Below, in pieces: positions 8,249 to 32,000 of a stretch of DNA of 32,000 nucleotides. Numbering within the stretch: the stretch's first letter is position 1; the number at the start of each line of letters is the position of its first letter. The notes beneath the pieces were generated by a model. It saw only the letters and a list, made by a program, of their open reading frames with translations. It did not search any database and had not been told where the DNA came from. Origin of the DNA: Candidatus Saccharimonadota bacterium (GTDB taxonomy: Bacteria > Patescibacteriota > Saccharimonadia > Saccharimonadales > UBA4665); contig CP065016.1 in assembly GCA_016700375.1 (NCBI GenBank), forward strand, positions 540,001 to 572,000. The letters run 5' to 3'. A program made the position numbers and the translations under genes.

Positions 8249-8884
8249 CTATTTTGAGGGCATGGTTGGAACAGTAATACTGGTTATTCCGCCGTTGTCC
8301 ACGGCATTTGCGATGGCTATAGAACAGAAATTGGCTATTGCGCCAGCCTGTACGGCCCGCGGCGAACCCTCGTTACCAATATCGGTTCGTAAACCTGGCA
8401 TTTCTCTTAGACTTCTCTCCATGCCAAGCCATGTTTCATAATCATTAAAACCATCTGGTGATTTGCTAAGCGCGCCACTGAGCAGTGCGGCGCTACATAA
8501 CCCCGCTCTTCCCTGTCGTCCGTATGTGTATGTGCGACCCCTACTTTCGTAGATAGTTGCCTTTAGTATGGTATCTGCCAGAGCCCCACCAAGGGTATAT
8601 TTCACGCCCGGTTGTTTCGATGCATTAATTTCGTTGACAGCAGTGTACTGGTCTAAAACCTGAGGGCTTTCAGTGGTCAAAACCCCGGGCTTACCAGGAA
8701 ACTGTGATGCCACGCAATCTAAAACGGCATGTTTCGCCCCTTCTGGGCCGGCACCGCCTAACGCAGAGTCTACCACATGTTCATACCCAGTATCTGCTAC
8801 TTCTGCCATTTGTTTGCCACCGCAACCTGTTAGCGCAAGTGCCAATCCTACTCCAACCGCTACATCTTTTATACCTCTTCTCAT
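8249..8884 (-). CDS. putative lipoprotein, function unknown
   Basis: From ATG 8884 the protein starts MRRGIKDVAVGVGLALALTGCGGKQ, a signal peptide plus lipobox L-T-G-C. AAGGAG lies 6 nt upstream. The track's longer ORF (to 8920) is probably over-extended. Confidence 0.7.
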   Translation of the reverse strand: MRRGIKDVAVGVGLALALTGCGGKQMAEVADTGYEHVVDSALGGAGPEGAKHAVLDCVASQFPGKPGVLTTESPQVLDQYTAVNEINASKQPGVKYTLGGALADTILKATIYESRGRTYTYGRQGRAGLCSAALLSGALSKSPDGFNDYETWLGMERSLREMPGLRTDIGNEGSPRAVQAGAIANFCSIAIANAVDNGGITSITVPTMPSK

Positions 8885-8912
8885 CGTTCTCTCCTTATGT
8901 ATTAATATACTG

Positions 8913-9347
8913 TTATTCAATTTCTAGTGACCGCTCGATCGCCCACCCTACCACAGCTCGACATGCAAGATCAGGTTGCCAGCCAGCACAATCCATAGCC
9001 GCAACACCAAGCTTGTGTTCAGGTGGTAATAGCGCTTTTATGGCATCGGGTATTTCGTCGCGAAAATCTAAATAGGCGCTTTCCCGCAATGATCCCGGCT
9101 TATACCCCTTAGCTGTGTCAAGCAGCCCCTTCACAACGTGGCGAGCCATGTCTAAGAAGTGCAGATCGGGATTTGGCTGCAGATCCCGATCTTGCAACTG
9201 GGTAAGCAGCTCTTTGCCCAACTTAAAGGTTGTGTAATCGGTGGGCGGATACCCAACCCCTAGAACACTCTGAAATGCTCTCTTAAGCGAGCCATCCATT
9301 ACATACGGCGGCGGCCAAGCAAGATTACCAGTATCTCCGTGCGACAT
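8913..9347 (-). CDS. hypothetical protein, 144 aa
   Basis: ATG-initiated ORF ending 28 nt upstream of the lipoprotein start on the same strand, so probably co-transcribed. No motif recognised. Confidence 0.55.
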   Translation of the reverse strand: MSHGDTGNLAWPPPYVMDGSLKRAFQSVLGVGYPPTDYTTFKLGKELLTQLQDRDLQPNPDLHFLDMARHVVKGLLDTAKGYKPGSLRESAYLDFRDEIPDAIKALLPPEHKLGVAAMDCAGWQPDLACRAVVGWAIERSLEIE

Positions 9348-12408: not shown

Positions 12409-13161
12409 TTAGATAGTTTTATCACCCCAATCCGAAAAAGCAATAATTACGAGAAGTACCGTAATAAGTATAAATAAAACTTCTCTACGAACCAGCTTCG
12501 ACAGTTTATCGAAGTGGTCTAAGTAATACAAAGTCCCAATACTAAATGCCATAGCCGAAAGTATAAGGGTTGGCTGTGCAACCACCCCATAGTAGTACAC
12601 GAGCCAGTGGCCTAAAATCCATGTAAGCGCCGCTCCAAAATATGCCCATATGTAGGCAAGGAGCCGAATATGCGTTTCTTCGAAGCTATAGAAAAAGTGG
12701 TGAGCGGCAAAAAAGCAAATAAAACCAACCGCCGCTATTAATCCCATAAGGGATATATAGTCCCACGCCGAAAAAACTGCCATCAGGCCGACGACTTGGC
12801 CAAATAACGCCTGCAAAGAAACCCAAAACACGTCATGCTTCGGCTTTACAAAAACAAGCCATAGCACCCACGCACTCACATAAACAGCCTGCAACCACAT
12901 CGTGTCAGTACCGTCCATAAGCGCTAGCGCCGAAAGCCCCACAATGATATCGATGGCATTTGTTCGAATGTTTGCAAGCCAAAAACGCGGTCGAACTGCA
13001 AACATACGCCATTTGCTGAGCAATATTACTACAAGAGCAACCTGCTCAAACCCGGAACGTACCAACGCAAATACTATAATCGGAAGCAGAACATTGAGCA
13101 GCAGATAAACCGCGTGAGAAAAACCCTTACTGGGCTTCAGTTTTGTAATTAGTGGCCTCAT
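12409..13161 (-). CDS. polytopic integral membrane protein (about 7-8 TM), function unknown
   Basis: Highly hydrophobic 250-aa ORF. It overlaps the LCP gene stop by 4 nt and ends 22 nt before the htrA RBS, so it is probably in the same operon. Confidence 0.75.
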   Translation of the reverse strand: MRPLITKLKPSKGFSHAVYLLLNVLLPIIVFALVRSGFEQVALVVILLSKWRMFAVRPRFWLANIRTNAIDIIVGLSALALMDGTDTMWLQAVYVSAWVLWLVFVKPKHDVFWVSLQALFGQVVGLMAVFSAWDYISLMGLIAAVGFICFFAAHHFFYSFEETHIRLLAYIWAYFGAALTWILGHWLVYYYGVVAQPTLILSAMAFSIGTLYYLDHFDKLSKLVRREVLFILITVLLVIIAFSDWGDKTI

Positions 13162-17243: not shown

Positions 17244-17710
17244 TCTAGCGTATCAGATGTAAGCCTCGTCGTAAACCAGAAGTCTCCATCGTACATAACC
17301 CCATAATACCAGCCTTTTAATCTTATTTACTTTATTAGCTCCATAATACCCATGACCTCGAACGGTCTATGTACCTGTTATCACCTTAGCAATCCCTGTA
17401 AATTCCTTCTGTATACGGCTAACCTTCCAAAAAATGGGGGGTGCATTTTTGTTATATGTGTATTCCATGCTAGCTTTTCCCGACAGATCTAACCAAATAG
17501 GTTTGGAATGATTAGAAATTGTACGAAATTGAAAAATTTGTCACGGTCCTTGCATAGGTCTGGTTGCTAGCCGAGTTGCGGTTTGCTACTGCGCTTTAAC
17601 TAATGAATTCACTTATACATCTAAGCGCCCCCTAGCACCTACCATCTTGCTTAAAAAACTACGTTTCGTTCATTCTATTTATATTTCGCCTAAAATGCAT
17701 TTAAGGTACT

Positions 17711-17748
17711 AAAAAAGCAGGCCTTGCGAGAGTGCCTGCTTTTCGTTT
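17711..17748. terminator. bidirectional rho-independent terminator-like hairpin
   Basis: AAAAAAGCAGGC-cttgcgagagt-GCCTGCTTTTCGTTT has an A-run on one side and a T-run on the other. On the minus strand it would end the transcript coming from the 18043..18555 gene. Confidence 0.55.
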
Positions 17749-17873
17749 GATACGTTTTTGTTTTTGTTTGGTTTGAAGTTTTTGATTTCTCCGCAAAGTA
17801 CACGGGAAATCTGCAGACAAGTATGCGCTAATGCTTTTGCAAATGCAATACTTTTTGTGCACATTTTTTGCTC

Positions 17874-17907
17874 AAACTGTGGATTTTACCCCAGTTATCC
17901 ACAGTTT
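17874..17907. promoter_or_regulatory. perfect 11-bp inverted repeat containing a consensus DnaA box
   Basis: AAACTGTGGAT-n12-ATCCACAGTTT. The right arm contains TTATCCACA (17895-17903), the 9/9 consensus DnaA box. The left arm contains TGTGGATTT, which is 7/9 in the opposite orientation. Confidence 0.45.
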
Positions 17908-18042
17908 CTTCGTTGTTCGTTACGCATAACTCGGGTTCAACATAAACATCAAGCCCTTGTCCTCACCCAAATACTGTTCTGCCCGCTTGCTGACACGTAG
18001 CGGTACTACGTGCTTATGTCCGGCCACGGCTACACTAGGATA

Positions 18043-18555
18043 CTACTTCTCGGCTCGGAGCGTACTAAAGAGCAAGCCCCAATCATCTTGCGTAATTGGG
18101 TCAGGAGGATGCGCAACCAGCAGAGTCCCCTGTGCGGCAAGGATAGCTGAGTCTCCACCTGGCGTGTACGTCCCCACCTCAACCATACGCACAAGTGAAA
18201 CCGTCCCAAGTGGACTACGAAAGTTTGCTACTGGCTTCAACGAACCAATGAAGCGGTCGTAGGCCGCCCTATCATCCCTGTACTGTAGTGGCAAAGCCTG
18301 CTCTGTGAAAACAACCTTTTGGTTATTGACATATGCAACAAAACTAACAGTTTGGTCGCTAGGGTTATAATACCAGTCTTGCAAGCGTATCGACTTGTTT
18401 GTGGGCAATAACACCGCGAATGAAGCCTGCAGGCGAATGTATTTAGGCGAACGAGGTGCTGGGTGGAGAAAATACCATCCTGTGCAAGCAATAATAAGCA
18501 ACACGAGCACAATTCGTAATGTGTTGACCACGACCGTCTCTGCTCTTGTAGTCAT
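18043..18555 (-). CDS. single-pass membrane protein, paralog of 28918..29691
   Basis: From ATG 18555: MTTRAETVVVNTLRIVLVLLIIACTGWYF (TM), then an extracytoplasmic domain of about 135 aa. It shares VVFTEQALP / LTVDQQAVP, FRSPLGTV / FTTTLGAV and a C-terminal ..DW.....[ST]L pattern with the 257-aa protein. The IS left end lies 8-12 nt upstream of this ATG. Confidence 0.7.
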   Translation of the reverse strand: MTTRAETVVVNTLRIVLVLLIIACTGWYFLHPAPRSPKYIRLQASFAVLLPTNKSIRLQDWYYNPSDQTVSFVAYVNNQKVVFTEQALPLQYRDDRAAYDRFIGSLKPVANFRSPLGTVSLVRMVEVGTYTPGGDSAILAAQGTLLVAHPPDPITQDDWGLLFSTLRAEK

Positions 18556-18562
18556 ACCTGAA

Positions 18563-19643
18563 TTATACACGAGTTTCGCACTCCCCAATTCTTTGCTAGC
18601 CTAGAAGCATGACGTCAGTCATGCTTTTTCGTAAACAAGGAAAATAAACATGTCTCGTTCAAAATGTTCTCGTGAGCTGTACTGCTCATTCCTGGAGGTC
18701 ACCTCCTCACGGTATTCTGCGCTCAGCTTGAGCGAAGTAGCCCCAGACAATGCCATGCTCTCTCACGACAGCGTCTCCCGTTGGCTAGCATCTGAAAAGA
18801 TACAGCCCAAAGACCTGTGGCAAGCTGCCGCTTAAGGAAGTTCGCGCCACTCCTGGCATTTTGGTCTTCGATGATGTCGTCATCGACAAAAGCCGAAGCG
18901 GCAAGATGGAGCTTGTGAACTGGCAGTATGCGGGAAGTAAGCATGACATCACCAGAGGGATTGGCGTTGTAAATGCGTTGTGGCAAGTAGATACAGAACA
19001 CTACATTCCTATGGACTACCGCATCTGGAACCCGCCAGAAGACGGCAAGACTAAGAATGATCACTTCCAGGATATGCTGAGTAGCACAAGACAGAGAGGG
19101 CTACGCCCGGAGATGGTTGTTGCGGATAGCTGGTACGGCTCTCTAAAAAACCTTAAGGCAGTTCGCTCTCATGGCTGGGACTGGGTCATGGGGCTGAGGA
19201 GCAACCGGTTAGTCGGTAAGCCACATATCCAGCTCAGAGAGTTAGATATACCAGATACAGGCTTGGTGACATATCTGAAAGGCTATGGGTGGATCAGAGT
19301 CTTCCGGTTTGAGGCCAGTAACGGCCGCACGGATTATGTTGGTACAAGTCGTACTGACCTCACCCGCGAACAAGTCAAGAAATACTTCGAGCGCCGTTGG
19401 AGTGTCGAGGTACTGCATCGAGAACTCAAACAAACCTGTGGCTTATCCCGCTGTCAGGCCAATCTTGGCCGAGCCCAAAGAAACCACATTGGGTTAGCTT
19501 TGCTTACCTGGGTACGAAAACATAAGAGAAGGCTAATTGACCAAACGACGCTATACCAACAAGATTGGGAGGTCATAAAACCAGGCATCCAGCTTGCGCT
19601 GGCTGCCCGGTTGAATGGGTGAAAGTGCGAAACTCGTGTTATA
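18563..19643 (+). mobile_element. insertion sequence of about 1.08 kb with terminal inverted repeats, IS4/IS5/IS701-like DDE type
   Basis: ACACGAGTTTCGCACT (18567-18582) is the perfect reverse complement of AGTGCGAAACTCGTGT (19624-19639). The match extends to about 20 bp with one indel (TATA). TAT flanks both ends, a possible 3-bp target duplication. A DDE transposase is encoded between the repeats. Confidence 0.8.
18650..19622 (+). pseudogene. DDE transposase split into two ORFs (61 aa + 253 aa) by a frame change near 18830-18860
   Basis: ORF1 ends ...SHDSVSRWLASEKIQPKDLWQAAA*. The next frame (+1) reads LKEVRATPGILVFDDVVIDKSRSGKMELV..., so the protein is contiguous apart from the shift. DDE contexts are VFDDVVIDK, VVADSWYGS and RRWSVEVLHRELKQTCGL. 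No A-rich slippery heptamer lies at the junction. Confidence 0.7.
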
Positions 19644-20036
19644 CCATCTGCCCCTGATGAAAAACACCTGCTCCTAACCCACGCGGACGTTTTGGGTGTC
19701 ATCTTGAGCACTGAAATGAATTCAGTGTTAAGTCCGTAGAAAGATCTCAACATATTTGCATCTAGCAGGATCCCAACATGGAGTCTGCCCTGTGGGGTCG
19801 GGACGACGATGGAACAAAAAAGTATGGGTGGGATCAGCACCGGCTCTATAGTGCGGGCTGACCGACCGCCTGAAGGTTGGCTTGAGCATACAATCTAGGA
19901 GCAACCCAGCAAGAGCATAACAAGATACTCAGTGCACTCACTAATGACCAGCCCGATGTATGTCGGCTATGCCACGGTATTACGCCACGGCTGTAGTAGG
20001 ACACGCAAGGCACACAAATAGTGTGGTTCGCCCGCG

Positions 20037-23000
20037 CTACCAGCTGATGACCCATATCTTACCGACACCGCCTGCACCGCCTGCACCGCCCGCGCCATAG
20101 CTGTGCGCACCACCGCCACCGCCACCGCCACCGCCCGCACCGCCTGCACCGCCTGCATTGCCATTGCTACTGCCGCCGCCACCGCCACTTCCACAGGCGG
20201 CCGACGTGGCCGTACTACCGGCTGTACCTGGAGCGTTAGTGCCACCGGCACCACCGCCGCCAGCCGTATAGCTACCGCTCTTTCCGCCAGACCCTCCGAC
20301 AAATCCAGACGTAGTACCGCCACCGCCACCGCCAGCACCATAACCAGCGCTCCCACCAGTACCCCCGTTTGCACCTGCGCCTGCCTTATTGCCGCCGCCG
20401 CCACCACCATATTCAGCATTGTATCCGGGGGTGCCGTTGCTAGCACCTTGCCCCCCTAGAGCATCTGCATTGGATGTTGCTGTCTGGCCACTAATTGTAC
20501 TACCTCCGCCACCCCCGACACCCGAGGTATTTCCACCTGTGCCCCCACCAGCAAAAGCATAGCCACCAAATGTCGAGGCACCACCGGCACCACCGGCACC
20601 ACTACCCGCCGTACCTGCGCTACCGCTACTGCCGACCGTTGCGGTCACCGTTGCGGTCAAATCAGCAGCCACAAACATCCGCTCTACATGCGCACCACCG
20701 CCACCGCCACCGCCAGCAGCAAGCCCGATGTTTTGCCCACCACTACCGCCGCCGCCGCCGCCGCACATAATGACCAGCACAGCAGAAACACCACTCGGTT
20801 TCGTCCAGGTGTTCGCGCCTACGGTCGAATATACTTGCACATCGACACCGGCTTGCATGCCAACCCACGTACCATTCTGGCAGAAACGGAATTGGTTGGC
20901 GTTAGAGTTATAGTACATACCACCATTTGTACAGGTAGGATCGCCAGATGTGTTTTTGGTATCCAGCACCAACACTGTCGCCGTCGCATCCACTGCCCCT
21001 ACAGTGATGATATTACCAGAGGTATTAATATTGAGAACATTTGTGCCACTGCCGTTTTGTACCTGAAATGCCGTTGTCGTGTCGCTAGGGTTCTTTATGG
21101 TCAGTCCTGGGCTGGCAGAGATGACACCGTCTGAGTAGATGGTGCTACCAGCACCCGTGACGACACCGCCAGTAAAGTAGCCCTGGAAGAAACGGTTACC
21201 CTGCGTTGTGTAGTCTGTAGTAGTTGCACCAATGTTCTGGATTGTGTACTTTGTGACCGTAATAGATGCGTCGTATGAAACAGCTGGGGAGACTGTATAG
21301 GTACCATTGGCATTATCTACCGTGACCCTCGTGTAGTAGTCTTGACCAGCGTTGTTGAAGAAGATGACATCGTTAACACTGAAGGCATCTGTTGTCAGGG
21401 TAATGGCAGTGACGTTGGTACGAGCAGTGGCTTCAGTGGTACCAGTAGTGGCCGTGGCAACACCACCAGCCAGCAGGTTACCATCTGTATTAATTTTAAT
21501 CGTAGCGGTAGCTGAACTATTCTGGAACTGAAGTAGGTCAGCAGTCTGTGACCCAAGCTGCTTTACGACTGCTGTAACGCTGCCTACAGCCGTGCTCTGG
21601 ATGTTGAAGTTGGCACTCGTTTGGGTTGTCGTAGCGTTCTGAATGTAGCCGGCACCACCAGTTGCTGGTGCACAACCACTCCAACCTAGCGTACTGGTAG
21701 ACCCAGCTACTGTGGTGCTGAGACACTGCCCTGTCGTACCAACCGCTGTCGGAAGAACGAGGGAGTAACTCGAGCTGGTGGTACCAGTTTGGAGAGTGAC
21801 GGTGTTGGCGTTGGTAGAGTTCCTGAGCACAAGGGTGCCGTTAGTGGTACTGGCGGTACCAAGAGTGAGTGAACTACCACCCTGTATAGTACCGGTAAAG
21901 GTAGCTGAACCAGTGGTGTTGGTGGTTGGTGATGAACCAGAGGCAGCTAGGCCAGTGTCATTGGTTGTTTGAGTGGCACCGAGTTTGGTGGTGACGGTGG
22001 TTATGAGACCTTGCGTCGCACCACCAACCGTACGGTAGACTTTGTAGCTGGTGGCACCTGAGATACTGTTCCAGGTGATGATGGTATAGTTACCAGCAGT
22101 CAGGGTTGCGTTACCAGTAGCGGTAGAGCCAGCAGATGAGGCAATAGTCTCGCCGACGCCATCGAGAGCCGTGATAGTGTAGCTGTAGGTTGTACTACCA
22201 GCTGTACCACCAGTCGTAATGGTGGGAGCGGAAGGAGTTGGGAGTGCTGCTGCAGTCAAACCACCTTGGAGACTGAGAGTGCCAGAGACGGTCGAGGTAC
22301 CAACGGTCAAAGCACCCATGCCTTTGTTGATGAGGTTACCTGCGCCGTCCATTTGGTTAGAGTAGCGGGTGCCGGTACCAGCGTCGTTGATGGTGGCGGT
22401 GTTGGCAGCCGTACCGGAGAAGGTGTTGGAGGCGAGGTAGTTGTTCGTAGAGCCGGAGTCGATGATGCTGATGGCGTAGCAGGTACCGGTACAGCTGGTG
22501 TCAGTGATGTCGTTGCTGGTGATGGTGTTGGAGGATGAGTTGTTTATGTAGATAGCGTTGTTCGCCGTAGCGCCATTATTGTCATGGAATTTGTTGGCAC
22601 CAACGGTATTATTTGATGAGGTGGTGATGTAGATGCCGTAGTTAGAATTTCCATATATGGTGTTGCCTGTAAGGGTGTTGTTGTTGGAAGATGACAATTC
22701 TATACCTTGGATGCTATTCCCCTGCGCAGTGTTACCGGTGAGGGTGTTGTTGGAGGAGGAGGAGATGGTGAGACCGTAGTTATTCCCCTGCGCAGTGTTA
22801 CCGGTGATGGTGTTGTTGTTGGAGGAGGAGGAGATGGTGAGACCGTAGTTATTCCCCTGCGCAGTGTTACCGGTGATGGTATTATTTGAGGAGGTACTGA
22901 GGAAGATACCATAATTGGTATTCCCTTGAGCAACATTGCCAGTGAGGGTGTTATAGCTGGAGGAGGAGCTGACGGAGATACCATAATTGGCATTCCCTTG

Positions 23001-26000
23001 AGCAACATTGCCAGTGAGGGTGTTATAGCTGGAGGAGCCGAGGTAAATACCGTTGACAGAATTCCCTTGTGTTGTATTGCTCGTAAGAACATTGTTAGAG
23101 GAGGAGCGGAGACAGATACCATTTCCATTCTGACAATTTGACCCACCCGAGGCATACCAGTTATTCGCCTGCACGTTAGATATGCGTGCACCTTGGCGAG
23201 CACTGGCTCCACTGCCGCCACCCATGTTAAAGAAGTCAATACCAGCCATACCAACAAAGCCGCTTTGGTTGGCTTTATTGCCATCAAGCTTTAAGTCTCT
23301 TAGGGTGACGTTAGTCCCCGTAGTTTGGTCGGTGTTTATGATGGCACTGAAGTTCACATTCAATGCGTTCGGAATAGTGATGAGGGTGCCTTGCCCTATA
23401 CCACTGAGGGTTGTGTTGTTCGGAACTGAGATGCTGGAGTCGATGGTGTAGGTACCGGCCAGGAGGACAACTTTCTTGCCGGTGGCAGCAGTGAGGGCTT
23501 GGTTGATCTGGACTTGGTCCCCGTCAGCCGCTGCACCAGTGTTACCATCACCCAGGTAGTCAGCAGCTGCTTTGTCTGAGGCAGAACTGTTACTGGCAGC
23601 CACAAGGATAGCTTCACTCTTGTCAGCTTGCCATTTGGTGAGAGTAGCGTTGTAGACCAAGAGTTGTTTGGTGTCGGTGTCGTAGTAGAGCATGCCGTCG
23701 GTGGGGCTCGCAGGACGGGAGGCGGTGTTACCGCCGGTGATGGTGATGCTCTTGCCCGCAGCCAGGACGGTATTGTTCTGCAGATTGATGACGCCTGTGG
23801 CGGCTGGGTTAATGTTTATGTTACCGCTGGTGGTGGTCTGAAGCGTGAGATTACCGGCGGTGGTATTGAGAGCGGTGTTTATGTTAGTACTGGCAAGGTT
23901 GCTTAAGCTGGTGTTGGCACCGCTCAGGGTTCCAGAGCCGGCAATTGTCCAGTCGGCACCGTTCCAGATGAGGGTAACAGCACTGGTTGGGTTCACGACG
24001 CTAGTAAGAGCACCAGCATTCATTGAGATAGTGAAGTTGTTGGTTGTGCTCGCATTGGTGATGTAGAACATACGGCCAGCGGTCGTAGAGGTTGGGTCTG
24101 GGATAGTGTAGGTGCGGGCAGCAACCGTTGGAGCGATTGAGGCAGCGGTATATATGTCGACCGTAGCAGCGGCGGTACCAATGGCACCGGCTGCGAGGTC
24201 ACCCAGAGCCAGGGTGCCATTGAGCGTAGCACCGTTGTTAGTGAGAAGTTGGTTGGCGCCAACCAGGAGACCACCGTTGGCAGTAATAAGGCCAGAGAAG
24301 GTTGGGTTGTTGACGACGCTTACAGTTGTGCTGCCACCAAGTGCAACACTGCCACCACCACTGAGGTTTGTACCGGCGGTGACGGTAAGACTAGAGTTCA
24401 CAAGGTTAGCATTGGTAACGGTTGCAGAGCCAATGTCTGTACCAGAGACAGTGCCATCAAGGATGTTGGTGCTGGTCACACCACCTGTGCTAATGTCCCC
24501 GGTGGCAATAGTGCCATCAAGAATCATGGTAGAGGTAACCTTACCAGTGCCAATGGCGTAGGTTAGGGTATTGCCACTGACGGTACCAGTAACGTCACCA
24601 GCCGTGGCAGCATTGGCCCAGTTCGTACCGTTGTAGACAAGCAGGTTGTTGGTAGCGAGCGAGGTGTAGGTTACCGTCTGACCGTTTATCTTTGCAACTG
24701 TTGGGTTTGGATACGTGCCAGAAAGATCGCCACCAGCGCTACCACTCGGTGCACCGCCACAGGCTCCCCAGGTCGGTTGACCGGTACCGCCCGTACCGCT
24801 CTGGAGACATTGGCCAGCACTAACTGTAGTGCCACTGTAGACATACTTTGTACCATCACTGTAGACAACACTGCCTGCTCCGCCAATGGCACCATTGTTG
24901 TTGGTACCACCATTGGCTATGGGAAGAGTGCCAGTGAAGGTAATGTTACCTGCAGCAGACAGAGCAATGTTACCAGAAGCACTGACGGCTAGCGTACCAG
25001 AAGCGTCAGGCAGGGTGTAGATTCGGGCGGCGGTGAGGTCAGCGTTGGTGATGGTACCGTCGAAGCGGGCAGCGCCAACCGCAGCGGCAGATATGAGGAT
25101 ACGGTCTTGGGTACCAGTGGCGGTATCTACAGTAATACCGCGGATGGTAGCACCACCCGTGAAGGAAGAAGCAACTGTTGTAGTCGCACCACGGTTGGTC
25201 ACCGTCTGCAGGGTATCTGCTTCAGCACTAATACCACAGCTGCCCCAACTTGGTGCCACACCGACACCATTAGATATGAGGCAGGAACCAGAAGCGACAG
25301 CGGCAAGCTTACTGAGAGTAGTCGCACCAGAGGCGTAGATAAGGTCACCGGTGGTGTAGCTGGTAATACCAGTACCACCGTAAGCTGCGCCAACGGCAGT
25401 TCCCTGCCAGGTACCGGTGGCAATGGTACCGACACTGGTAATACTGGTTGTGTTACCGGTGGTAATAACAGTACCGGAGACATCGGGGAAGGTCCAGGTA
25501 CGGTTGGCAGTCAGGTCAGCGTTGGTAATGGTACCAGTGAAGCGGCCTGCCCCGCCGGTGGTAACGGCGACAGATATAAGGTCGTCGGTGGCAGTGGCGG
25601 TGTCTACCGTCAGGGTACGGATAGTAGCTCCACCCTGGAAGGAAGAAGCTGTTGTGGTAGTAGCACCACGGCCAGTGACAGTGGCGAGAGTATCTGCCTC
25701 CGCCGTAATACCACAAGAACCCCACTGGATGGTGGTGGCATTGCTGGTCAGACACTGACCATTGGTTCCTCGGGCGAGACGAGTACTGTTGGTACCATTG
25801 TGGTAGAGGAGGTCACCGTTGGTGGTCAGGCCTGAGAGATTGTTTATGGCACCTTGGGCGGTGGTGGCGTTCGTACCACCATTGGCTATGGGGAGAGTGC
25901 CGGTGACGTTTGTAGTCAGGTTAATCTGGTTGGCGGTAATAGCCTGCCCCGTGAGACTGAGGTAGTTCTGACCGCTGACGGTGACATCGCCGGTGTTGGT

Positions 26001-28601
26001 ACCCGTAAGATTACTGCCACTGACTGTACCTGTGGCAGAAATATTGCCAGTGACGTTCGTGTTATCTTGCAACTCTATGGTGCCAGCACTGTTGAGGACT
26101 ATGTTCCCACTAGTGGTAGTAGTAATGTTCAGGTTGTTGCTGGTGCTGTTCAGGGCGGTGGTGCCAAGGTTGACGGCTGAGAGATTGCTTAAGCTGGTGT
26201 TGGCACCGCTCAGAGTGCCCGAGCCGGCAATTGTCCAGTCAGCACCGTTCCAGATGAGGGTAACAGCGCTGGTTGGGTTCACGACGCTAGTGAGAGCACC
26301 GGCATTCATTGAGATAGTGAAGTTGTTGGTTGTGCTCGCATTGGTGATGTAGAACATACGGCCAGCGGTCGTAGAGGTTGGGTCTGGGATAGTGTAGGTG
26401 CGGGCAGCAACTGTTGGAGCGATTGAGGCCGCGGTATATATGTCGACCGTAGCAGCGGCGGTACCAATGGCACCGGCTGCGAGGTCACCCAGAGCCAGAG
26501 TGCCATTGAGCGTAGCACCGTTGTTAGTGAGAAGTTGGTTGGCGCCAACCAGGAGACCACCGTTGGCAGTAATAAGGCCAGAGAAGGTTGGGTTGTTGAC
26601 GACGCTTACAGTTGTGCTGCCACCAAGTGCAACACTGCCACCACCACTGAGGTTTGTACCGGCGGTGACGGTAAGACTAGAGTTCACAAGGTTAGCATTG
26701 GTAACGGTTGCAGAGCCAATGTCTGTACCAGAGACAGTGCCATCAAGGATGTTGGTGCTGGTCACACCACCCGTGCTAATGTCCCCGGTGGCAATAGTGC
26801 CATCAAGGATCATGGTAGAGGTAACCTTACCAGTGCCAATGGCGTAGGTTAGGGTATTGCCACTGACGGTACCAGTAACGTCACCAGCCGTGGCAGCATT
26901 GACCCAGTTCGTACCGTTGTAGACAAGCAGGTTGTTGGTAGCGAGTGAGGTGTAGGTTACCGTCTGACCGTTTATCTTTGCAACTGTTGGGTTTGGATAC
27001 GTGCCAGAAAGATCGCCACCAGCGCTACCACTCGGTGCACCGCCACAGGCTCCCCAGGTCGGTTGACCGGTACCGCCCGTACCGCTCTGGAGACATTGGC
27101 CAGCACTAACTGTAGTGCCACTGTAGACATACTTTGTACCATCGCTGTAGACAACACTGCCTGCTCCGCCAATGGCACCATTGTTGTTCGTACCACCGTT
27201 GGCTATGGGAAGAGTGCCGGTGAAGGTAATGTTACCAGCAGCAGACAGAGCAATGTTACCAGAAGCACTGACGGCGAGCGTACCAGAAGCGTCAGGCAGG
27301 GTGTAGGTTCGGGCAGCGGTGAGGTCAGCGTTGGTGATGGTACCGTCGAAGCGGGCAGCGCCAACATTTGCAGCCGCTATTAATATACGATCATACGCCG
27401 TATTGGCCGATGCAAGTGTCAGGCCATCTTGAAATGTTTTATTTCCAGCAAATGTCTGAGCGGCCGTACCGACAAGCCCGGGTTTGTCAACCTGGGCGGT
27501 TTGCATATATATAGACGTACCACTTATGACAGCGCCATCGTTTGACTTTGACTGCGAGTCAATGGTACCGACAGATGTTACCCCAGAACCACCGCCAGCA
27601 CAACTCCCGAAACTCAGCTGCCCTGCACCGTCAGTGAGAACACAATCACCGTTGCTGCCATTCGAAATCGGGAATGTAATGGTTCGGTTTGCGGCAGAAG
27701 CACCTGCTTTGAGAGTGGTCGTAAAGCCATTGCCAGCATGCAACACCATCTGCCCTTGGGTACTGGCGCTACCGACCGTCACTGTTGTGTTTGCTAGGAA
27801 CGTGTTTACTTGACCACTCCCTGATATGCGAAAACTGGCACTTTGGTCAGTGGCAGTTTGGTTCTGGATATAGCTAGCGTTTGCCGCCGAACCAGTCAAT
27901 AGCGTATACGTCCCCCCAGCTCCTTGGTCAGGAACCTGGAATATCTGGTTGCCACCGGTTGGTGCTTGGATGCTAAGGGTTGAGTTGAGTGCTCCTGATG
28001 TGGTCAGTAGCTGACTCGCCGTCTTAGCATTAAACGCATAGGGTACTGCGGTGAGCTTGAGTCTTGGGGACATCTCTCCGTCCCAGGTGGGAGTAGCGGT
28101 TTGGGTGGTACCACCAACGTTCATGGTGAGGTAGAGCTGTTGGTCCCAGGGCATCGTACCGGGGAAAGCTGTTTGGGAGCCAAGGTTAACGGTAACGTAG
28201 CCATTGGCTACTCGGACACGGTTGTCGTTACCTGCTGTACCACCATTGCTGTCGTAGTAGGTTTCAGTCCAGAGGAGAGCACCACCACTCAGGGCATCGT
28301 AGAGCTTGAACTGGATGTTGTAGTAGCCGTCTGGGGCAATGGCACCAGCAGCTGTTTCCAGACGAGCCTGGAAGTTTAGGTTGTCACTGGTGGCGGCATA
28401 CGCGTGTGGCACGCCTACGCCCCCGCGCGTGAGGAAAAACAGGGGGAGGAGGAGCAAGGTGAACACCAAAATTGTACGGATGGGCTGAGCGATAGCCTGT
28501 ACATTCTGCCACGAGCGGTACACTGACACGACAAATCCCCTGAGCGGTATACGCTTCAGGGTGCGCCGGAACAGTACGAGTTTTTTGCCCTGTCTATGCA
28601 T
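20037..28601 (-). CDS. 2854-aa secreted giant surface protein (tail-fibre-like repeats, parallel beta-helix, FN3-like module, glycine-rich C-terminal domain)
   Basis: Single uninterrupted ORF. The N-terminal hydrophobic segment IRTILVFTLLLLPLFFL is followed by PHAYA-AT, which is signal-peptide-like. Motifs LPIANGGTN, RTYTLPDASGT and G-x-C-L...W-G-x-C recur. PbH1-type 22-24-aa units occur (NTLTGNVAQGNANYGISVSSSS...). An FN3-like GATSYKVYR is present. The last 247 aa contain about 106 Gly. Confidence 0.9.
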   Translation of the reverse strand: MHRQGKKLVLFRRTLKRIPLRGFVVSVYRSWQNVQAIAQPIRTILVFTLLLLPLFFLTRGGVGVPHAYAATSDNLNFQARLETAAGAIAPDGYYNIQFKLYDALSGGALLWTETYYDSNGGTAGNDNRVRVANGYVTVNLGSQTAFPGTMPWDQQLYLTMNVGGTTQTATPTWDGEMSPRLKLTAVPYAFNAKTASQLLTTSGALNSTLSIQAPTGGNQIFQVPDQGAGGTYTLLTGSAANASYIQNQTATDQSASFRISGSGQVNTFLANTTVTVGSASTQGQMVLHAGNGFTTTLKAGASAANRTITFPISNGSNGDCVLTDGAGQLSFGSCAGGGSGVTSVGTIDSQSKSNDGAVISGTSIYMQTAQVDKPGLVGTAAQTFAGNKTFQDGLTLASANTAYDRILIAAANVGAARFDGTITNADLTAARTYTLPDASGTLAVSASGNIALSAAGNITFTGTLPIANGGTNNNGAIGGAGSVVYSDGTKYVYSGTTVSAGQCLQSGTGGTGQPTWGACGGAPSGSAGGDLSGTYPNPTVAKINGQTVTYTSLATNNLLVYNGTNWVNAATAGDVTGTVSGNTLTYAIGTGKVTSTMILDGTIATGDISTGGVTSTNILDGTVSGTDIGSATVTNANLVNSSLTVTAGTNLSGGGSVALGGSTTVSVVNNPTFSGLITANGGLLVGANQLLTNNGATLNGTLALGDLAAGAIGTAAATVDIYTAASIAPTVAARTYTIPDPTSTTAGRMFYITNASTTNNFTISMNAGALTSVVNPTSAVTLIWNGADWTIAGSGTLSGANTSLSNLSAVNLGTTALNSTSNNLNITTTTSGNIVLNSAGTIELQDNTNVTGNISATGTVSGSNLTGTNTGDVTVSGQNYLSLTGQAITANQINLTTNVTGTLPIANGGTNATTAQGAINNLSGLTTNGDLLYHNGTNSTRLARGTNGQCLTSNATTIQWGSCGITAEADTLATVTGRGATTTTASSFQGGATIRTLTVDTATATDDLISVAVTTGGAGRFTGTITNADLTANRTWTFPDVSGTVITTGNTTSITSVGTIATGTWQGTAVGAAYGGTGITSYTTGDLIYASGATTLSKLAAVASGSCLISNGVGVAPSWGSCGISAEADTLQTVTNRGATTTVASSFTGGATIRGITVDTATGTQDRILISAAAVGAARFDGTITNADLTAARIYTLPDASGTLAVSASGNIALSAAGNITFTGTLPIANGGTNNNGAIGGAGSVVYSDGTKYVYSGTTVSAGQCLQSGTGGTGQPTWGACGGAPSGSAGGDLSGTYPNPTVAKINGQTVTYTSLATNNLLVYNGTNWANAATAGDVTGTVSGNTLTYAIGTGKVTSTMILDGTIATGDISTGGVTSTNILDGTVSGTDIGSATVTNANLVNSSLTVTAGTNLSGGGSVALGGSTTVSVVNNPTFSGLITANGGLLVGANQLLTNNGATLNGTLALGDLAAGAIGTAAATVDIYTAASIAPTVAARTYTIPDPTSTTAGRMFYITNASTTNNFTISMNAGALTSVVNPTSAVTLIWNGADWTIAGSGTLSGANTSLSNLASTNINTALNTTAGNLTLQTTTSGNININPAATGVINLQNNTVLAAGKSITITGGNTASRPASPTDGMLYYDTDTKQLLVYNATLTKWQADKSEAILVAASNSSASDKAAADYLGDGNTGAAADGDQVQINQALTAATGKKVVLLAGTYTIDSSISVPNNTTLSGIGQGTLITIPNALNVNFSAIINTDQTTGTNVTLRDLKLDGNKANQSGFVGMAGIDFFNMGGGSGASARQGARISNVQANNWYASGGSNCQNGNGICLRSSSNNVLTSNTTQGNSVNGIYLGSSSYNTLTGNVAQGNANYGISVSSSSSYNTLTGNVAQGNTNYGIFLSTSSNNTITGNTAQGNNYGLTISSSSNNNTITGNTAQGNNYGLTISSSSNNTLTGNTAQGNSIQGIELSSSNNNTLTGNTIYGNSNYGIYITTSSNNTVGANKFHDNNGATANNAIYINNSSSNTITSNDITDTSCTGTCYAISIIDSGSTNNYLASNTFSGTAANTATINDAGTGTRYSNQMDGAGNLINKGMGALTVGTSTVSGTLSLQGGLTAAALPTPSAPTITTGGTAGSTTYSYTITALDGVGETIASSAGSTATGNATLTAGNYTIITWNSISGATSYKVYRTVGGATQGLITTVTTKLGATQTTNDTGLAASGSSPTTNTTGSATFTGTIQGGSSLTLGTASTTNGTLVLRNSTNANTVTLQTGTTSSSYSLVLPTAVGTTGQCLSTTVAGSTSTLGWSGCAPATGGAGYIQNATTTQTSANFNIQSTAVGSVTAVVKQLGSQTADLLQFQNSSATATIKINTDGNLLAGGVATATTGTTEATARTNVTAITLTTDAFSVNDVIFFNNAGQDYYTRVTVDNANGTYTVSPAVSYDASITVTKYTIQNIGATTTDYTTQGNRFFQGYFTGGVVTGAGSTIYSDGVISASPGLTIKNPSDTTTAFQVQNGSGTNVLNINTSGNIITVGAVDATATVLVLDTKNTSGDPTCTNGGMYYNSNANQFRFCQNGTWVGMQAGVDVQVYSTVGANTWTKPSGVSAVLVIMCGGGGGGSGGQNIGLAAGGGGGGGAHVERMFVAADLTATVTATVGSSGSAGTAGSGAGGAGGASTFGGYAFAGGGTGGNTSGVGGGGGSTISGQTATSNADALGGQGASNGTPGYNAEYGGGGGGNKAGAGANGGTGGSAGYGAGGGGGGTTSGFVGGSGGKSGSYTAGGGGAGGTNAPGTAGSTATSAACGSGGGGGSSNGNAGGAGGAGGGGGGGGGAHSYGAGGAGGAGGVGKIWVISW
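22690..23050. repeat. DNA-level tandem units of 66, 69 and 72 bp encoding parallel beta-helix turns
   Basis: attcccctgcgcagtgttaccggtga recurs at about 22716, 22782 and 22851. gataccataattggNattcccttgagcaacattgccagtgagggtgttatagctggaggag recurs at 22905 and 22977. Confidence 0.85.
23899..25079. repeat. intragenic direct repeat, copy A (1181 bp)
   Basis: Aligns base-for-base with 26185..27365 at a constant offset of 2286 bp. I count about 22 mismatches by hand. Confidence 0.9.
26185..27365. repeat. intragenic direct repeat, copy B (1181 bp)
   Basis: See copy A. The encoded segments of about 393 aa differ at only two residues (V/A in NW[VA]NAAT, T/I in AAR[TI]YTLPD). Confidence 0.9.
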
Positions 28602-28896
28602 AGCTTCTTTTGTTTTGGTTTTTGAGAGTTTTTGTTTGTATCAGTTTGTTTTGTTTTGCCGATACGTAGCTAATTGTGCGCGTCTTTTGCTACAAAAACA
28701 AGACAGCTTAGGCCTATTCTCTAAAGCAACAGAATGGGGAGGTTTTATGTATGCAATTCATATCAATATGTTATTATAAATACAGCAGAATACCTTAAAA
28801 TAGTGTAAAAATGTTGTTATTTTACCTCATATATTTGTTCCTTGAAATCAATTTAGAGTTGTTAAAATATCAACAATAGTAATAATACTGTCCAGG

Positions 28897-28905
28897 TTAT
28901 CCACA
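28897..28905 (+). promoter_or_regulatory. second perfect DnaA-box 9-mer in the AT-rich region upstream of the giant gene
   Basis: TTATCCACA in context CCAGGTTATCCACAGG. The other copy reads CCAGTTATCCACAGT. Confidence 0.3.
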
Positions 28906-28917
28906 GGCATACATACC

Positions 28918-29691
28918 TCACTGCAGGCTTTGAATGTACACCACCCAGTCTGTATTTGGCAGTGTCTTGGTGCTCTGTATAAACATAAGCATTTTGTCAC
29001 TTACGAGCATCATTCGCTGCGTGTTTGCGTCTTCACTACTTGATATGTAGACCGCCCCTAGGGTGGTCGTAAATGTATCATTTGCACCTATGCTAGTTGC
29101 AAGCTCGCGCACAGCTGTTTTACTGGTTTTGAGTTTTTCTGGTACGGCCTGTTGGTCAACAGTGAGGTTTGCACCTTTATAGGAGTCATAGAAAGAGTAT
29201 AGTTTTTTTGCCTCATCATACTTTGGCGGTGTTGCCGTCACCTTCCCGGCCACAAGCTGAACCGATTGCAACGGTTTATACCCCAACTCGGCCTGTACGA
29301 TTGTGGGTGCTTTCGGTGTTGGTGCTGACTTTTGTGTCGCGCCAAGGAGCATCTTTCCCCCAAAAATACCGACAAACACTACTACAGCCGCAAGCAACCA
29401 TGGCCGCAGCCGAGCAAACGGGATACGGGGGACATGCAATTGCGGCATATGAATTTGGATAGATACAGTCGGCTGTTCGCCATGTTTCGGCGGCAGCACC
29501 TCCGACCGCCGCAGACGACGTTTCACCTGGGATGCAGTAAATCCCTCTGTGGATTTCACTTGGGATGGCGAGGTGTGGCGTATGGCCTTCGTTGGGGGCT
29601 GGTCAGGAGATGTGTCATCACGCAGCCACGCCGGCAGCGCATCGTCATCGTCGAAATCAATCGTTTTAAACTTACCGACGTCCATAGACAC
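28918..29691 (-). CDS. single-pass membrane protein, paralog of 18043..18555
   Basis: An acidic or basic cytoplasmic N-terminus of about 95 aa, then the TM segment WLLAAVVVFVGIFGGKMLL. The extracytoplasmic domain shares motifs with the 170-aa paralog. It starts 6 nt after the Kelch-like gene stop. Confidence 0.75.
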   Translation of the reverse strand: MSMDVGKFKTIDFDDDDALPAWLRDDTSPDQPPTKAIRHTSPSQVKSTEGFTASQVKRRLRRSEVLPPKHGEQPTVSIQIHMPQLHVPRIPFARLRPWLLAAVVVFVGIFGGKMLLGATQKSAPTPKAPTIVQAELGYKPLQSVQLVAGKVTATPPKYDEAKKLYSFYDSYKGANLTVDQQAVPEKLKTSKTAVRELATSIGANDTFTTTLGAVYISSSEDANTQRMMLVSDKMLMFIQSTKTLPNTDWVVYIQSLQ

Positions 29692-29697
29692 TCCTCA

Positions 29698-32000
29698 TCA
29701 TGGTAACGGACAGTTGTAGTTCGGATCACCGGGCGATGCGCTCCCACGGCGGCACGGGGTGTCGAGCGGCTGCTGCTCACCGCCGGTAAATGTTTTTCCG
29801 TGCAGCATACGCTTGCTGGGGTCGGCCGTGTAAAACAACGAAAGGTCGGTGATAGTTGGCCCGCGCGTGACGTCCTCTGGATAGCCAAAGGCCTGCGAGC
29901 TATCGATATTGACCGAGAAGTAGTAGTAGCGTGCGCAGTTTGTGTTTGTGCCACTCCCATCACGAGGAACTAACGTGCCAACATTCCCCAGCGTGACCTC
30001 GCCGTGATTATACTCCTGCCCCCATGTGGTCATATCGACCACGCAATCGGCCGTCACGCCATCTATGTCTGTCATACTCCGGTAGCGGAGGTACCAACGT
30101 GCGCCAGTCGAGTTATCGACACCATTCAAAAGCCAGCTGTTTGGAAATACATCTGTGTCGGTATCTATCATGCGCGAATACTTTGCAACTTGCGGCTGTG
30201 ATTTTATGGACGAATAGAAATGCCTGCCACTGCTGAGCGGTGCCGTACAGCCACCACCCATAACAACTATTTTGCCGCCCACATAGGAAACCGCCGCACC
30301 GTATCTGTCGCCGCTGTAGCGTTTATTTGTTTCATACCAGTCGCCAATGCCAGTTGGGTTATTGCCGCTCGCCACCGTTGTGTTGGCGCTGATGGGTGTC
30401 ACGAGCGTATTTGGCGCACAGGTACTGGCGGCCGAGCGGCCAGCTACCAAATAGAGATAGCCATTGGCGGCAAAGCCCTCAGCTTCACTGATTGGCCCCG
30501 GAAGGCTTGTCGTAAACGTCCATGCGTCGACCGTTCCGTCGCTGTTAATCTGGGTAAACTGTGCATCATTAAAATACTGGGTACCATTGTTGCCGCCAAA
30601 AGTGTACAAATTATTGGCATACGCTACCACTGTGTTACCACGCCGAGCAACATCTGGCACGTCTGTGTCTTGCGCCCAGCTATCGGCCGCAATATTGCCG
30701 CCGCTACTCAGCTGCGGGCTTATGTAGACCGTGTTGGTGTTCGCAGCGCTACCATCTAAGCCTCCGACAACATATATGCGGTTGTTCCATACCGCCGCGC
30801 CGAATCGAGTCCTGGCTTGTGCAGCTTGTGCAGCTGTATCACCTATACCTCCTGAAGCGGTTGACCAAGCTGTGGCAATGTCTCCCGAGGAAAAACTATT
30901 TGCATAGAACACAGTCGATTGCTCGTTAGTGGCTGTGTCGTCTTGACCACCAAGATAGTACAGGTTTCCACCGGCAACCTCCAGTTGCCCCCAAGTTCTA
31001 TCAAACGGCAGACCATTTGTGGCCGATGCCCATGTACCAATTGTTCCATTCGATGTATCGATTGGCGCGTACTGCACGTTACTGGTTGCATTTGTACAGT
31101 CCGTCGCACTAATACAACCGCCCGCCACATATATATAGCCATTCAACACAGCCGAGCTTGCACCCCACCGATCGGTATCGGCCGCAAACGTGTCATCTGA
31201 CAGCGCCGTGTAATCTACCGGCGCACCACTATCGTTATTGTAAAGCTGGAATGTCTGAATCTCTGGCTGCATACTCGTGCAGCCAGCCGGTGCCGCCCCT
31301 GCCGCACAACCGCCAATAGCATAGACATAGCCATTACCCACAATAGCACGCAAATCCCAGCGAGGTGTCACTACCACACCAGAGCTATCAAACGTGCCCA
31401 TATCTCCTGTTGTCACGTCTATTTTTGCAAACAAAAGGTCTTGAAGCGAGGCAGTGCCGCTATACCCAGCAAGCGAATATATGTACCCGTTGTACCCAAA
31501 AGCCACGGCGCGTCGGCGCACAGGATCCATGAGCCCTGTCGTAAATTTCCAACTGCCTGTTGATAGACCCGTTGTATTATCGACAATGTTATTGCTATCA
31601 TCAATTTTTGCGTATATGGTGTCGCGACGGTTTGCGGCAAAGTTGGGGCCACATGGATAGTTATCGTCACCGGTTCCCCCAGCATTAATAACCGAGCACG
31701 AGCCACCAACAAGGTAAATTCGATTTGCATATATTGTACCAGCCATTAGGCCAAGCCCCTGAGAACCAGTGTTGAGATTATCGGCGTCAATTTGAAGCTG
31801 ACCTGCGGTATCACAGTCAGTCGCATTGGCCTCTTCCAATGCCCCGCTGGTCATAATATTACACTTATATACTTCTGTGAAATACGTGCTACAACCTATG
31901 CCATCATCACCTGTGCCCCCACCAGCTATATAACATCCGCCCAACACATACAGGTTGCCCGGGTAGGTTGCCGCATTGGCTGGGTTAGACCTGGTAAAAC
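29698..32000 (-). CDS. Kelch-repeat-like beta-propeller protein, at least 767 aa (5' end beyond the right window edge)
   Basis: At least 10 blade signatures: GNLYVLGG (at the edge), NRIYLVGG, GYIYSLAG, GYVYAIGG, GYIYVAGG, GNLYYLGG, NRIYVVGG, NNLYTFGG, GYLYLVAG, GKIVVMGG. The track's start at 31947 is a TTG. The frame stays open to position 32000 (..FTRSNPANAATYPGNLYVLGGCYIAGGG), so the gene is truncated by the window. Confidence 0.85.
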   Translation of the reverse strand, partial: FTRSNPANAATYPGNLYVLGGCYIAGGGTGDDGIGCSTYFTEVYKCNIMTSGALEEANATDCDTAGQLQIDADNLNTGSQGLGLMAGTIYANRIYLVGGSCSVINAGGTGDDNYPCGPNFAANRRDTIYAKIDDSNNIVDNTTGLSTGSWKFTTGLMDPVRRRAVAFGYNGYIYSLAGYSGTASLQDLLFAKIDVTTGDMGTFDSSGVVVTPRWDLRAIVGNGYVYAIGGCAAGAAPAGCTSMQPEIQTFQLYNNDSGAPVDYTALSDDTFAADTDRWGASSAVLNGYIYVAGGCISATDCTNATSNVQYAPIDTSNGTIGTWASATNGLPFDRTWGQLEVAGGNLYYLGGQDDTATNEQSTVFYANSFSSGDIATAWSTASGGIGDTAAQAAQARTRFGAAVWNNRIYVVGGLDGSAANTNTVYISPQLSSGGNIAADSWAQDTDVPDVARRGNTVVAYANNLYTFGGNNGTQYFNDAQFTQINSDGTVDAWTFTTSLPGPISEAEGFAANGYLYLVAGRSAASTCAPNTLVTPISANTTVASGNNPTGIGDWYETNKRYSGDRYGAAVSYVGGKIVVMGGGCTAPLSSGRHFYSSIKSQPQVAKYSRMIDTDTDVFPNSWLLNGVDNSTGARWYLRYRSMTDIDGVTADCVVDMTTWGQEYNHGEVTLGNVGTLVPRDGSGTNTNCARYYYFSVNIDSSQAFGYPEDVTRGPTITDLSLFYTADPSKRMLHGKTFTGGEQQPLDTPCRRGSASPGDPNYNCPLP

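Follow-up and report, generated by a model that had tools for sequence, protein, structure and literature searches.

Giant proteins and matched small membrane partners encoded as paired genes in a Candidatus Saccharibacteria genome

The DNA considered here, 32,000 nucleotides of a Candidatus Saccharibacteria genome (contig CP065016.1, positions 540,001 to 572,000; hereafter the window), carries on its minus strand a cluster of four genes made up of two pairs in tandem. In each pair, the gene of a giant protein is followed by the gene of a small single-pass membrane protein. One giant bears Kelch repeats (the Kelch giant) and precedes a protein of 257 residues (the K-type partner); the other is a repeat-rich protein of 2854 residues (the fibre giant) and precedes a protein of 170 residues (the G-type partner). 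The two small proteins are paralogs. On their sequences they belong to a previously undescribed superfamily, and across related loci the subfamily of the small protein goes with the kind of C-terminal module that ends the giant upstream. The pairing probably helps to build a cell surface used for contact with other cells. An earlier note, made from the letters of the window alone, had considered that the organism might be a Patescibacterium. This is borne out by the 257-residue protein, which is 100% identical to IPP75_03005 of Candidatus Saccharibacteria.

Giant and partner gene pairs

The four genes and the segments between them, in minus-strand order from 5' to 3', are as follows. The open reading frame (ORF) coordinates agree with the common strand and the spacings given in the earlier note.

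29698 to >32000, minus strand: Kelch ORF (ORF list)
28918 to 29691, minus strand: K-type partner, 257 residues (ORF list)
28602 to 28917, no strand: AT-rich spacer of 316 nt, 31% G+C, between the K-type partner and the fibre giant
20037 to 28601, minus strand: fibre giant, 2854 residues (ORF list)
19645 to 20036, no strand: spacer of 392 nt between the fibre giant stop and the insertion sequence (IS)
18569 to 19638, plus strand: IS701-family element of 1070 bp between the 392-nt spacer and the G-type partner
18043 to 18555, minus strand: G-type partner, 170 residues (ORF list)

The Kelch stop lies 6 nt from the GTG start of the 257-residue ORF, or 12 nt from the conserved ATG (MD) start at 29685, counted from which the K-type partner has 255 residues. 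On the 3' side of the 170-residue ORF, about 800 nt of AT-rich intergenic DNA are followed by parA and parB.

Only the C-terminal 767 codons of the Kelch ORF are inside the window, and there is no in-frame stop up to base 31998. As its homologs are 1958-2222 residues long, with an N-terminal hydrophobic segment, the Kelch ORF must be part of a second giant of about 2000 residues that is cut by the window end. The earlier description of it as a Kelch-like propeller protein is right about the repeats, which score above the Pfam cutoffs for PF24681 (60.1 bits; cutoff 50), PF01344 (55.1; 20.1) and PF13964 (44; 25.3); the product is a giant, however, and not a propeller protein of middling size. 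The label Cys-rich applies only modestly (16 Cys in 767 residues, 2.1%).

Twenty-five loci were collected for comparison, with scans of a genome collection and of metagenomes giving five loci each. Where the locus reaches far enough upstream, 18 distinct pairs can be compared, and in 17 of them the small gene has directly upstream, on the same strand, a gene for a protein of at least 747 residues (a gene call); the others range from 935 to more than 3311 residues. The sole exception is L020, where a 342-residue pentapeptide-repeat protein is encoded between a giant of more than 5278 residues and the small gene. The gap between giant and partner, represented in the window by the 392-nt spacer, is at most 151 nt in other pairs and in L022-L024 gives way to a 1-nt overlap of stop and start. 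The genes 3' of the partner vary by locus and may encode ParA, a protein with FN3, Big and redoxin domains, an IS200-like product or a fibre giant. A K-type partner is followed by a fibre giant in L002, L007, L008 and L011. In L006, L016 and L018, the 170-type partner and fibre giant are present with no Kelch gene or 257-type partner nearby. Since the pair recurs while its neighbors change, and since G-type pairs occur in loci free of Kelch genes, the unit is a giant with the partner encoded downstream, and two of these units stand in tandem in the window. Synteny of the cluster, which the earlier note had asked to be tested, is found in other genomes, but that note's picture of two paralogs bracketing one giant is replaced by one in which each paralog follows a giant of its own, K-type after Kelch giant and G-type after fibre giant. 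No description of a giant paired with a small membrane partner was found in the literature.

Paralogous partners and the C-terminal modules of the giants

A BLASTP comparison of the 257- and 170-residue proteins is not significant (E 3.1), though it falls in the register proposed before. For comparison of profiles, three alignments were used: A1, with 27 homologs of the 257-residue protein; A2, with nine of the 170-residue protein; and A3, with 111 sequences of the enlarged 170-residue family. A first hhalign comparison of A1 with A2 gave a probability of 43% and an E value of 2.4e-4 over 118 columns, in the register of the earlier reader and with only nine sequences on one side. It is superseded by the comparison of A1 with A3, which gave a probability of 99.3% and an E value of 2.8e-20 over 133 columns. 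The A1 hidden Markov model (HMM) also matches about 140 of the best 150 matches of the A2 profile, down to E 1.7e-19, across the transmembrane (TM) helix and the ectodomain. With at most 64 bits from the A1 HMM, none of these belongs to A1 proper, whose own members score 325-392 bits. The cross-matches of the K and G types are reciprocal best among all ORFs of the loci, and the AlphaFold2 (AF2) models of both small proteins have one TM helix followed by strands and helices in the same order. The 257- and 170-residue proteins are true paralogs, and the motif pairs from which the earlier note had argued for this (VVFTEQALP/LTVDQQAVP and FRSPLGTV/FTTTLGAV) lie in the register of the significant profile alignment.

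The A2 profile finds at least 398 clusters at 50% identity (E ≤ 1e-3). Judged by sequence, the small partners are one previously undescribed protein superfamily, whose signature is present in both window proteins: a single N-terminal TM helix and an ectodomain of about 130 residues with the motifs (E/Q)Q..P, LG.V, GTL.F/KMLMF and a W close to the C-terminus. Most members have 165-180 residues, about 5-20 of them cytoplasmic, and some have long N-terminal tails. A single hydrophobic segment is seen in each small protein, and basic residues flank it N-terminally; from this, the N-terminus would be cytoplasmic and the conserved domain would face outward. Across the superfamily, only Q, P, G, T, L and W are nearly invariant in the ectodomain, which speaks for a domain with a binding or structural role and against an enzyme. 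Neither the small proteins nor the families around them have a match in Pfam, NCBIfam or PHROGs, in keeping with the earlier remark that the cluster was not recognized as any named system, and the superfamily has no sequence match to any solved structure. When the two AF2 models were compared with the PDB by Foldseek, nothing significant was found, the best matches being Mog1, YbjN, the Eag chaperone SciW and RseB, all at E > 0.01. In BFVD, two models of phage 'lipoprotein' type matched at about E 5e-4; with TM-scores of 0.2-0.3 and root-mean-square deviations of 17-27 Å, the likeness is at the level of architecture and was set aside.

The K-type partner has a predicted cytoplasmic tail of about 95 residues, a single TM helix (residues 96-118, in a hydrophobic segment at 92-119) and an extracytoplasmic alpha/beta domain of about 130 residues, modeled with a predicted local distance difference test score (pLDDT) above 90. 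Its 34 homologs are all from Saccharibacteria and all unnamed or 'hypothetical'. In alignment A1, the cytoplasmic N-terminus (window 29400-29691, about 95 residues) carries the conserved motif MDxGKFK..DDDDxLPxWLRDD, and the juxtamembrane motif of K-type partners is PTVSIQIHMP. The N-terminal motif may resemble the C-terminal peptide of FtsZ (D-I-P-x-F-L-R). The G-type partner has a short N-terminus, a single TM helix (residues about 4-30, in a hydrophobic segment at 4-34) and likewise a predicted extracytoplasmic alpha/beta domain of about 130 residues, whose pLDDT is about 60-88 save for a low-confidence stretch at residues 113-128.

Compared with one another, the ectodomains sort into K (257-type), G (170-type) and C (P0065-like) clusters, with 41-91% identity within clusters and 11-38% between them. 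These map one-to-one on three types of C-terminal module in the upstream giant. K partners go with Kelch giants ending in ...PLDTPCR..DPNY..CPLP, and in every one of the loci compared the 257-type partner is downstream of a Kelch giant. In the window this conserved module ends in ...PLDTPCRRGSASPGDPNYNCPLP, and the C-terminal 190 or so residues of the Kelch giant are 53-89% identical in six other genomes. G partners go with a glycine-rich module ending in (E/K)(V/I)WV(F/I)SW. In L006, L012, L014, L016 and L018, their orthologs come directly 3' of a giant whose C-terminus is glycine-rich, and the ending itself is found in the giants of L006, L012, L016 and L018; the giant of L014 has the glycine-rich module in an ORF without that ending. 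Against PF21722 Gly_rich_2 (cutoff 24.3 bits), the module scores above the cutoff in L012 (36.4) and below it in L016 (21.1), in L006 (20.0) and in the window (10.3), where the match is weak (E 0.68) yet aligned over profile positions 2-223 of 226. C partners go with a Cys-containing module ending in ...NC..S.....R. Because giants of the G and C types have a common N-terminal domain and different C-terminal modules, it is the C-terminal end that the partner tracks. It is chiefly on this ground that we propose recognition of the giant's C-terminal module by the ectodomain.

Fibre giant, insertion element and flanking DNA

Thr (16.5%), Gly (15.8%) and Ser (9.6%) are abundant in the fibre giant. 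Five segments were marked in it:

27837 to 28601, minus strand: N-terminus, with a hydrophobic signal-type segment (residues 34-64) followed by AYA|A, and a conserved N-terminal domain (residues about 60-255), from hydropathy and HMM
26179 to 27378, minus strand: internal direct repeat, N-terminal-side copy (residues about 408-807), 97.3% identical to the other copy
23893 to 25092, minus strand: internal direct repeat, second copy (residues about 1170-1569), offset by 2286 nt
22632 to 23204, minus strand: right-handed parallel beta-helix segment (residues about 1800-1990), from Pfam and NCBIfam profiles
20040 to 20846, minus strand: C-terminal glycine-rich module ending in GKIWVISW-COOH, preceded by DPTCTNGGMYYNSNANQFRFCQNGTW, from module comparison

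The HMM of the N-terminal domain matches the large protein upstream of G- or C-type partners in L006, L007, L008, L011, L014, L016, L018 and L023 (E 1e-22 to 1e-81). The beta-helix profiles score above threshold (PF05048 NosD 116.7 bits, PF13229 Beta_helix 95.5 bits, TIGR03804 97.2 bits), and PDB sequence searches with the N- and C-terminal modules gave no match. Each direct repeat covers 1.2 kb, or about 400 residues, and may reflect collapse or expansion during assembly. In the L011 ortholog, a single region is matched by both copies, a sign that length and copy number may vary by recombination. In giants of the G and C types (L006, L012, L016, L018, L023, L024), the C-terminal module is preceded by a Cys motif, DP.C..G.(I/M)YYN...N.FR.C.NG.W (window 20846-20960), whose place looks like a junction of stalk and head. 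Some giant genes in metagenome contigs are split into several ORFs by frameshifts or sequencing errors (L011, 11075-12484; L014, 6819-7193 and 7267-9846).

The element between the fibre giant and its partner belongs to the IS701 family (NF049921, 274.2 bits; cutoff 250). Its terminal inverted repeats are perfect (16/16), and it is flanked by a 6-bp target duplication, TTATAC, at 18563-18568 and 19639-19644. The transposase lies in two frames, 18650-18835 and 18861-19622, and may be inactive or depend on frameshifting. The element lies 13 nt upstream of the ATG of the G-type partner. It probably affects expression of this partner, uncoupling the gene from its giant. Since the 170-residue protein of L025, a contig of a related sample, is 99% identical and its gene has no IS, with the empty site visible, the insertion is recent and polymorphic among strains.

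The 316-nt spacer (31% G+C versus 49.5% for the whole window) presumably carries a promoter of the fibre giant's own; promoter and terminator scans found no excess over the shuffled expectation, and an Rfam scan of the window gave no match. The 392-nt spacer (19645-20036) has no likeness to any sequence collected here. Perfect DnaA-box 9-mers (TTATCCACA) are found at 17895-17903 and 28897-28905, both inside AT-rich spacers; two are observed in the window versus 0.30 expected, a count reached in 4 of 100 shuffles. One of them is in the intergenic region between the 170-residue gene and parA (17244-18042; 799 nt, 41% G+C), a possible origin region by its sequence. Elsewhere in the window, the minus-strand ORFs at 3245-5134, 1018-1560, 8249-8920 and 12409-13161 (180-629 residues) are without a Pfam match; the 250-residue ORF among them adjoins a LytR-family gene, a position that is kept in L004.

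Related loci carry further genes on both sides of the pair. Upstream of the giants are genes for WxLIP-like proteins and for secreted proteins of about 350 residues (L016, 18-4189; L018, 214-1173; L022, 2980-3960; L023, 598-5019; L024, 102-3847), the latter ending in ...DYxDT(I/L)T(I/V)xxAG(S/N)F. On the 3' side are a conserved FN3/Big/redoxin protein of about 750 residues and a dCache protein. By sequence these upstream and downstream genes make up a conserved surface cluster of wider extent, which the window lacks. The giants and their neighbors contain Kelch, beta-helix, CBM_4_9, FN3 and Big domains.

Possible role of the pairing and comparison with known systems

The proposal to which we give even odds is that the small protein, tethered to the membrane, serves as docking or assembly partner to the C-terminus of a Sec-exported giant. 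Export of each giant by Sec would be served by the signal-peptide-type segment of the fibre giant and by the N-terminal hydrophobic segment seen in the Kelch homologs. The ectodomain of the small protein encoded downstream would recognize the C-terminal module of its own giant, and would either tether that end to the membrane or aid its folding or assembly. The propeller, beta-helix and fibre-repeat parts would be left displayed on the surface. Neither giant carries a sortase LPXTG signal; their C-termini, ...DPNYNCPLP and ...GKIWVISW, lack a hydrophobic segment. That the two proteins bind physically, that the small one anchors or assembles the giant and that the pairs serve in contact with host cells is what we infer from gene order and sequence. 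Glycan degradation, another role named in the earlier note, is a possibility of the same kind. A wider proposal, held more tentatively, is that Saccharibacteria, and possibly other Patescibacteria, have a dedicated and undescribed two-component contact-surface system in which the partner subfamily is matched to the giant C-terminus and the K-type tail couples the giant to a cytoplasmic component.

Several observations weigh against a docking or assembly role. Foldseek found nothing significant in the PDB, which leaves the fold without a lead on function. Strict co-transcription is not universal, as indicated by the 392 nt plus IS that separate giant and partner in the window and by opposite-strand genes for proteins of about 210 residues that intervene between Kelch giant and partner in L007 (9299-9931), L010 (9193-9819) and L011 (8920-9552). 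The Kelch C-terminus of L011 is 89% identical to that of the window and the partner ectodomain only 54%, which tight co-evolution would not predict. In L004, the K-type pair is present together with a beta-helix protein without a G-type partner. Finally, the glycine-rich module might form a tip far from the membrane that binds a receptor, instead of being anchored; polyglycine domains of the phage gp38 type would be a parallel.

Conservation of the locus is also mosaic. The gene inserted in L007 has the look, by eye, of an IS200/RAYT-type transposase, and the inserts of L010 and L011 are related to each other. Relative to the window, L007 is 98% identical in the Kelch protein, 82% in the partner and 62% in the giant N-terminus; in L011, the giant N-terminus is 86% identical and the whole small partner 41%. 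The pattern in L007, L008 and L011 points to recombination between lineages inside the locus, as far as sequence comparison goes.

Among other explanations, that of a polymorphic toxin and immunity pair, with the giant delivering a C-terminal toxin and the small membrane protein protecting the producer, fares best and is still improbable. CdiA/CdiI, Rhs and LXG are modules of this kind, and as in them a giant with a modular C-terminus is followed by a small cognate gene. The conserved N-terminus, repeat stalk and swappable C-terminal module, with the small gene directly 3', sometimes overlapping and of a type that tracks the module, are as this explanation would have them, and the Cys motif before the G- and C-type modules (DP.C..G.YYN...N.FR.C.NG.W) resembles a pre-toxin boundary. 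However, all the small proteins are mutually homologous, whereas immunity proteins of different toxins are normally unrelated. No toxin family is found in any C-terminal module (the G-type matches PF21722 Gly_rich_2, above the cutoff in L012; the K- and C-types have no match), the modules are conserved across genomes (53-89%) rather than hypervariable, and no orphan module or immunity arrays were seen in the loci compared.

Slightly less probable is that the small protein transduces a signal, its ectodomain sensing a surface protein or an external cue and signaling inward in the style of an anti-sigma factor. The K-type tail of about 95 residues with its conserved motifs, the long N-terminal tails of some other members and the sensor proteins (dCache, HisKA) encoded downstream in L018, L022 and L024 would suit such a regulator. 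The few cytoplasmic residues kept by most members (about 5-20) would not, nor does the family show a known anti-sigma or signaling domain or a consistently adjoining sigma factor or regulator. On a par with this in probability is a general housekeeping protein of the envelope, an accessory of wall, division or secretion whose adjacency to the giants reflects operon history. The family has no assigned function and is widespread (398 clusters), and its window copy adjoins parAB, all of which would be compatible with housekeeping. But adjacency to a large secreted protein is kept in at least three subfamilies while other neighbors change, the subfamily tracks the giant C-terminal module, and two paralogs each stand behind a different giant within 12 kb. 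Least probable is that the two paralogs are anchors jointly holding both ends of the single 2854-residue giant, as the order of K-partner, giant and G-partner in the window and of K-partner and fibre giant in L002, L007, L008 and L011 might suggest, since L006, L016 and L018 have the G-type partner and its giant without the K-type partner or a Kelch gene, L004 has the K-type partner and Kelch giant followed by a 661-residue beta-helix protein without the fibre N-terminal domain or a G-type partner, and the distance from the K-type partner is 6-20 nt to the Kelch stop versus 258-393 nt to the fibre giant start.

If the small proteins are docking or assembly partners, the pairs bear on how ultrasmall epibiotic bacteria from the candidate phyla radiation (CPR) recognize and attach to their hosts, which is largely an open question. 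The rule that a giant is followed by its small partner is concrete, widespread and usable for annotating surface systems of Saccharibacteria. It comes with a new protein family whose ectodomain is confidently modeled, with a testable specificity code that relates partner subfamily to giant C-terminal module, and with natural alleles, IS-disrupted and intact, that are available for comparison.

Phage tail fibres, such as gp37 of T4 or Stf of lambda, are encoded ahead of a downstream assembly chaperone or adhesin (gp38 and Tfa, respectively). The pairs are like these in that a long fibre precedes a small gene whose type tracks the C-terminal domain of the fibre, and in having a glycine-rich C-terminal module (above the PF21722 cutoff in one ortholog). 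Unlike the phage proteins, the partner here is predicted to be membrane-tethered and extracytoplasmic, and the genes are chromosomal and kept beside parAB. None of the four proteins matches PHROGs at E ≤ 1e-3, and they are not assigned to a phage family.

Very large surface proteins or adhesins, with a role in host contact proposed or shown by transposon insertion sequencing (Tn-seq), are described for Vampirococcus lugosii (PMC8080830) and Southlakia epibionticum, whose adhesins are essential (PMC10633639). For host contact in CPR bacteria, Tn-seq points to no more than assorted 'adhesins' besides type IV pili (PMC10633639). The window giants are similar: they too are very large, belong to a Patescibacterium and are membrane or surface proteins that carry interaction domains. 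Compared by description, they differ in their pairing, as the two papers describe no small membrane partner.

In the WxL/WxLIP system of Firmicutes, large surface proteins have a C-terminal WxL domain, which a TM-anchored protein is proposed to bind and stabilize (PMC10599100). Some related loci (L016, L018, L022-L024) encode proteins of 320-350 residues with WxLIP architecture (a signal peptide, about 300 residues and a C-terminal TM helix), and three of these match PF06030 WxLIP_PGBD weakly, one of them at threshold (27.8 bits, with a cutoff of 27.3) and the others with 22 and 21 bits. No WxLIP-like gene is found in the window or in L002-L012. Nor is there a WxL domain in the giants, the C-terminal modules or the secreted proteins of about 350 residues of related loci, even at E ≤ 10. 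With neither a WxL domain nor a WxLIP-like gene, the window is not assigned to the WxL system. The small partner also differs from WxLIP, to which it is unrelated in sequence, in being anchored N-terminally with about 130 residues outside the membrane. What the pairs share with WxL/WxLIP (Csc) clusters (PMC10599100; PMC1534035) is the plan of a monoderm surface cluster in which the C-terminus of a large secreted protein is held by a co-encoded, membrane-anchored and non-enzymatic partner, a plan proposed here from the genes.

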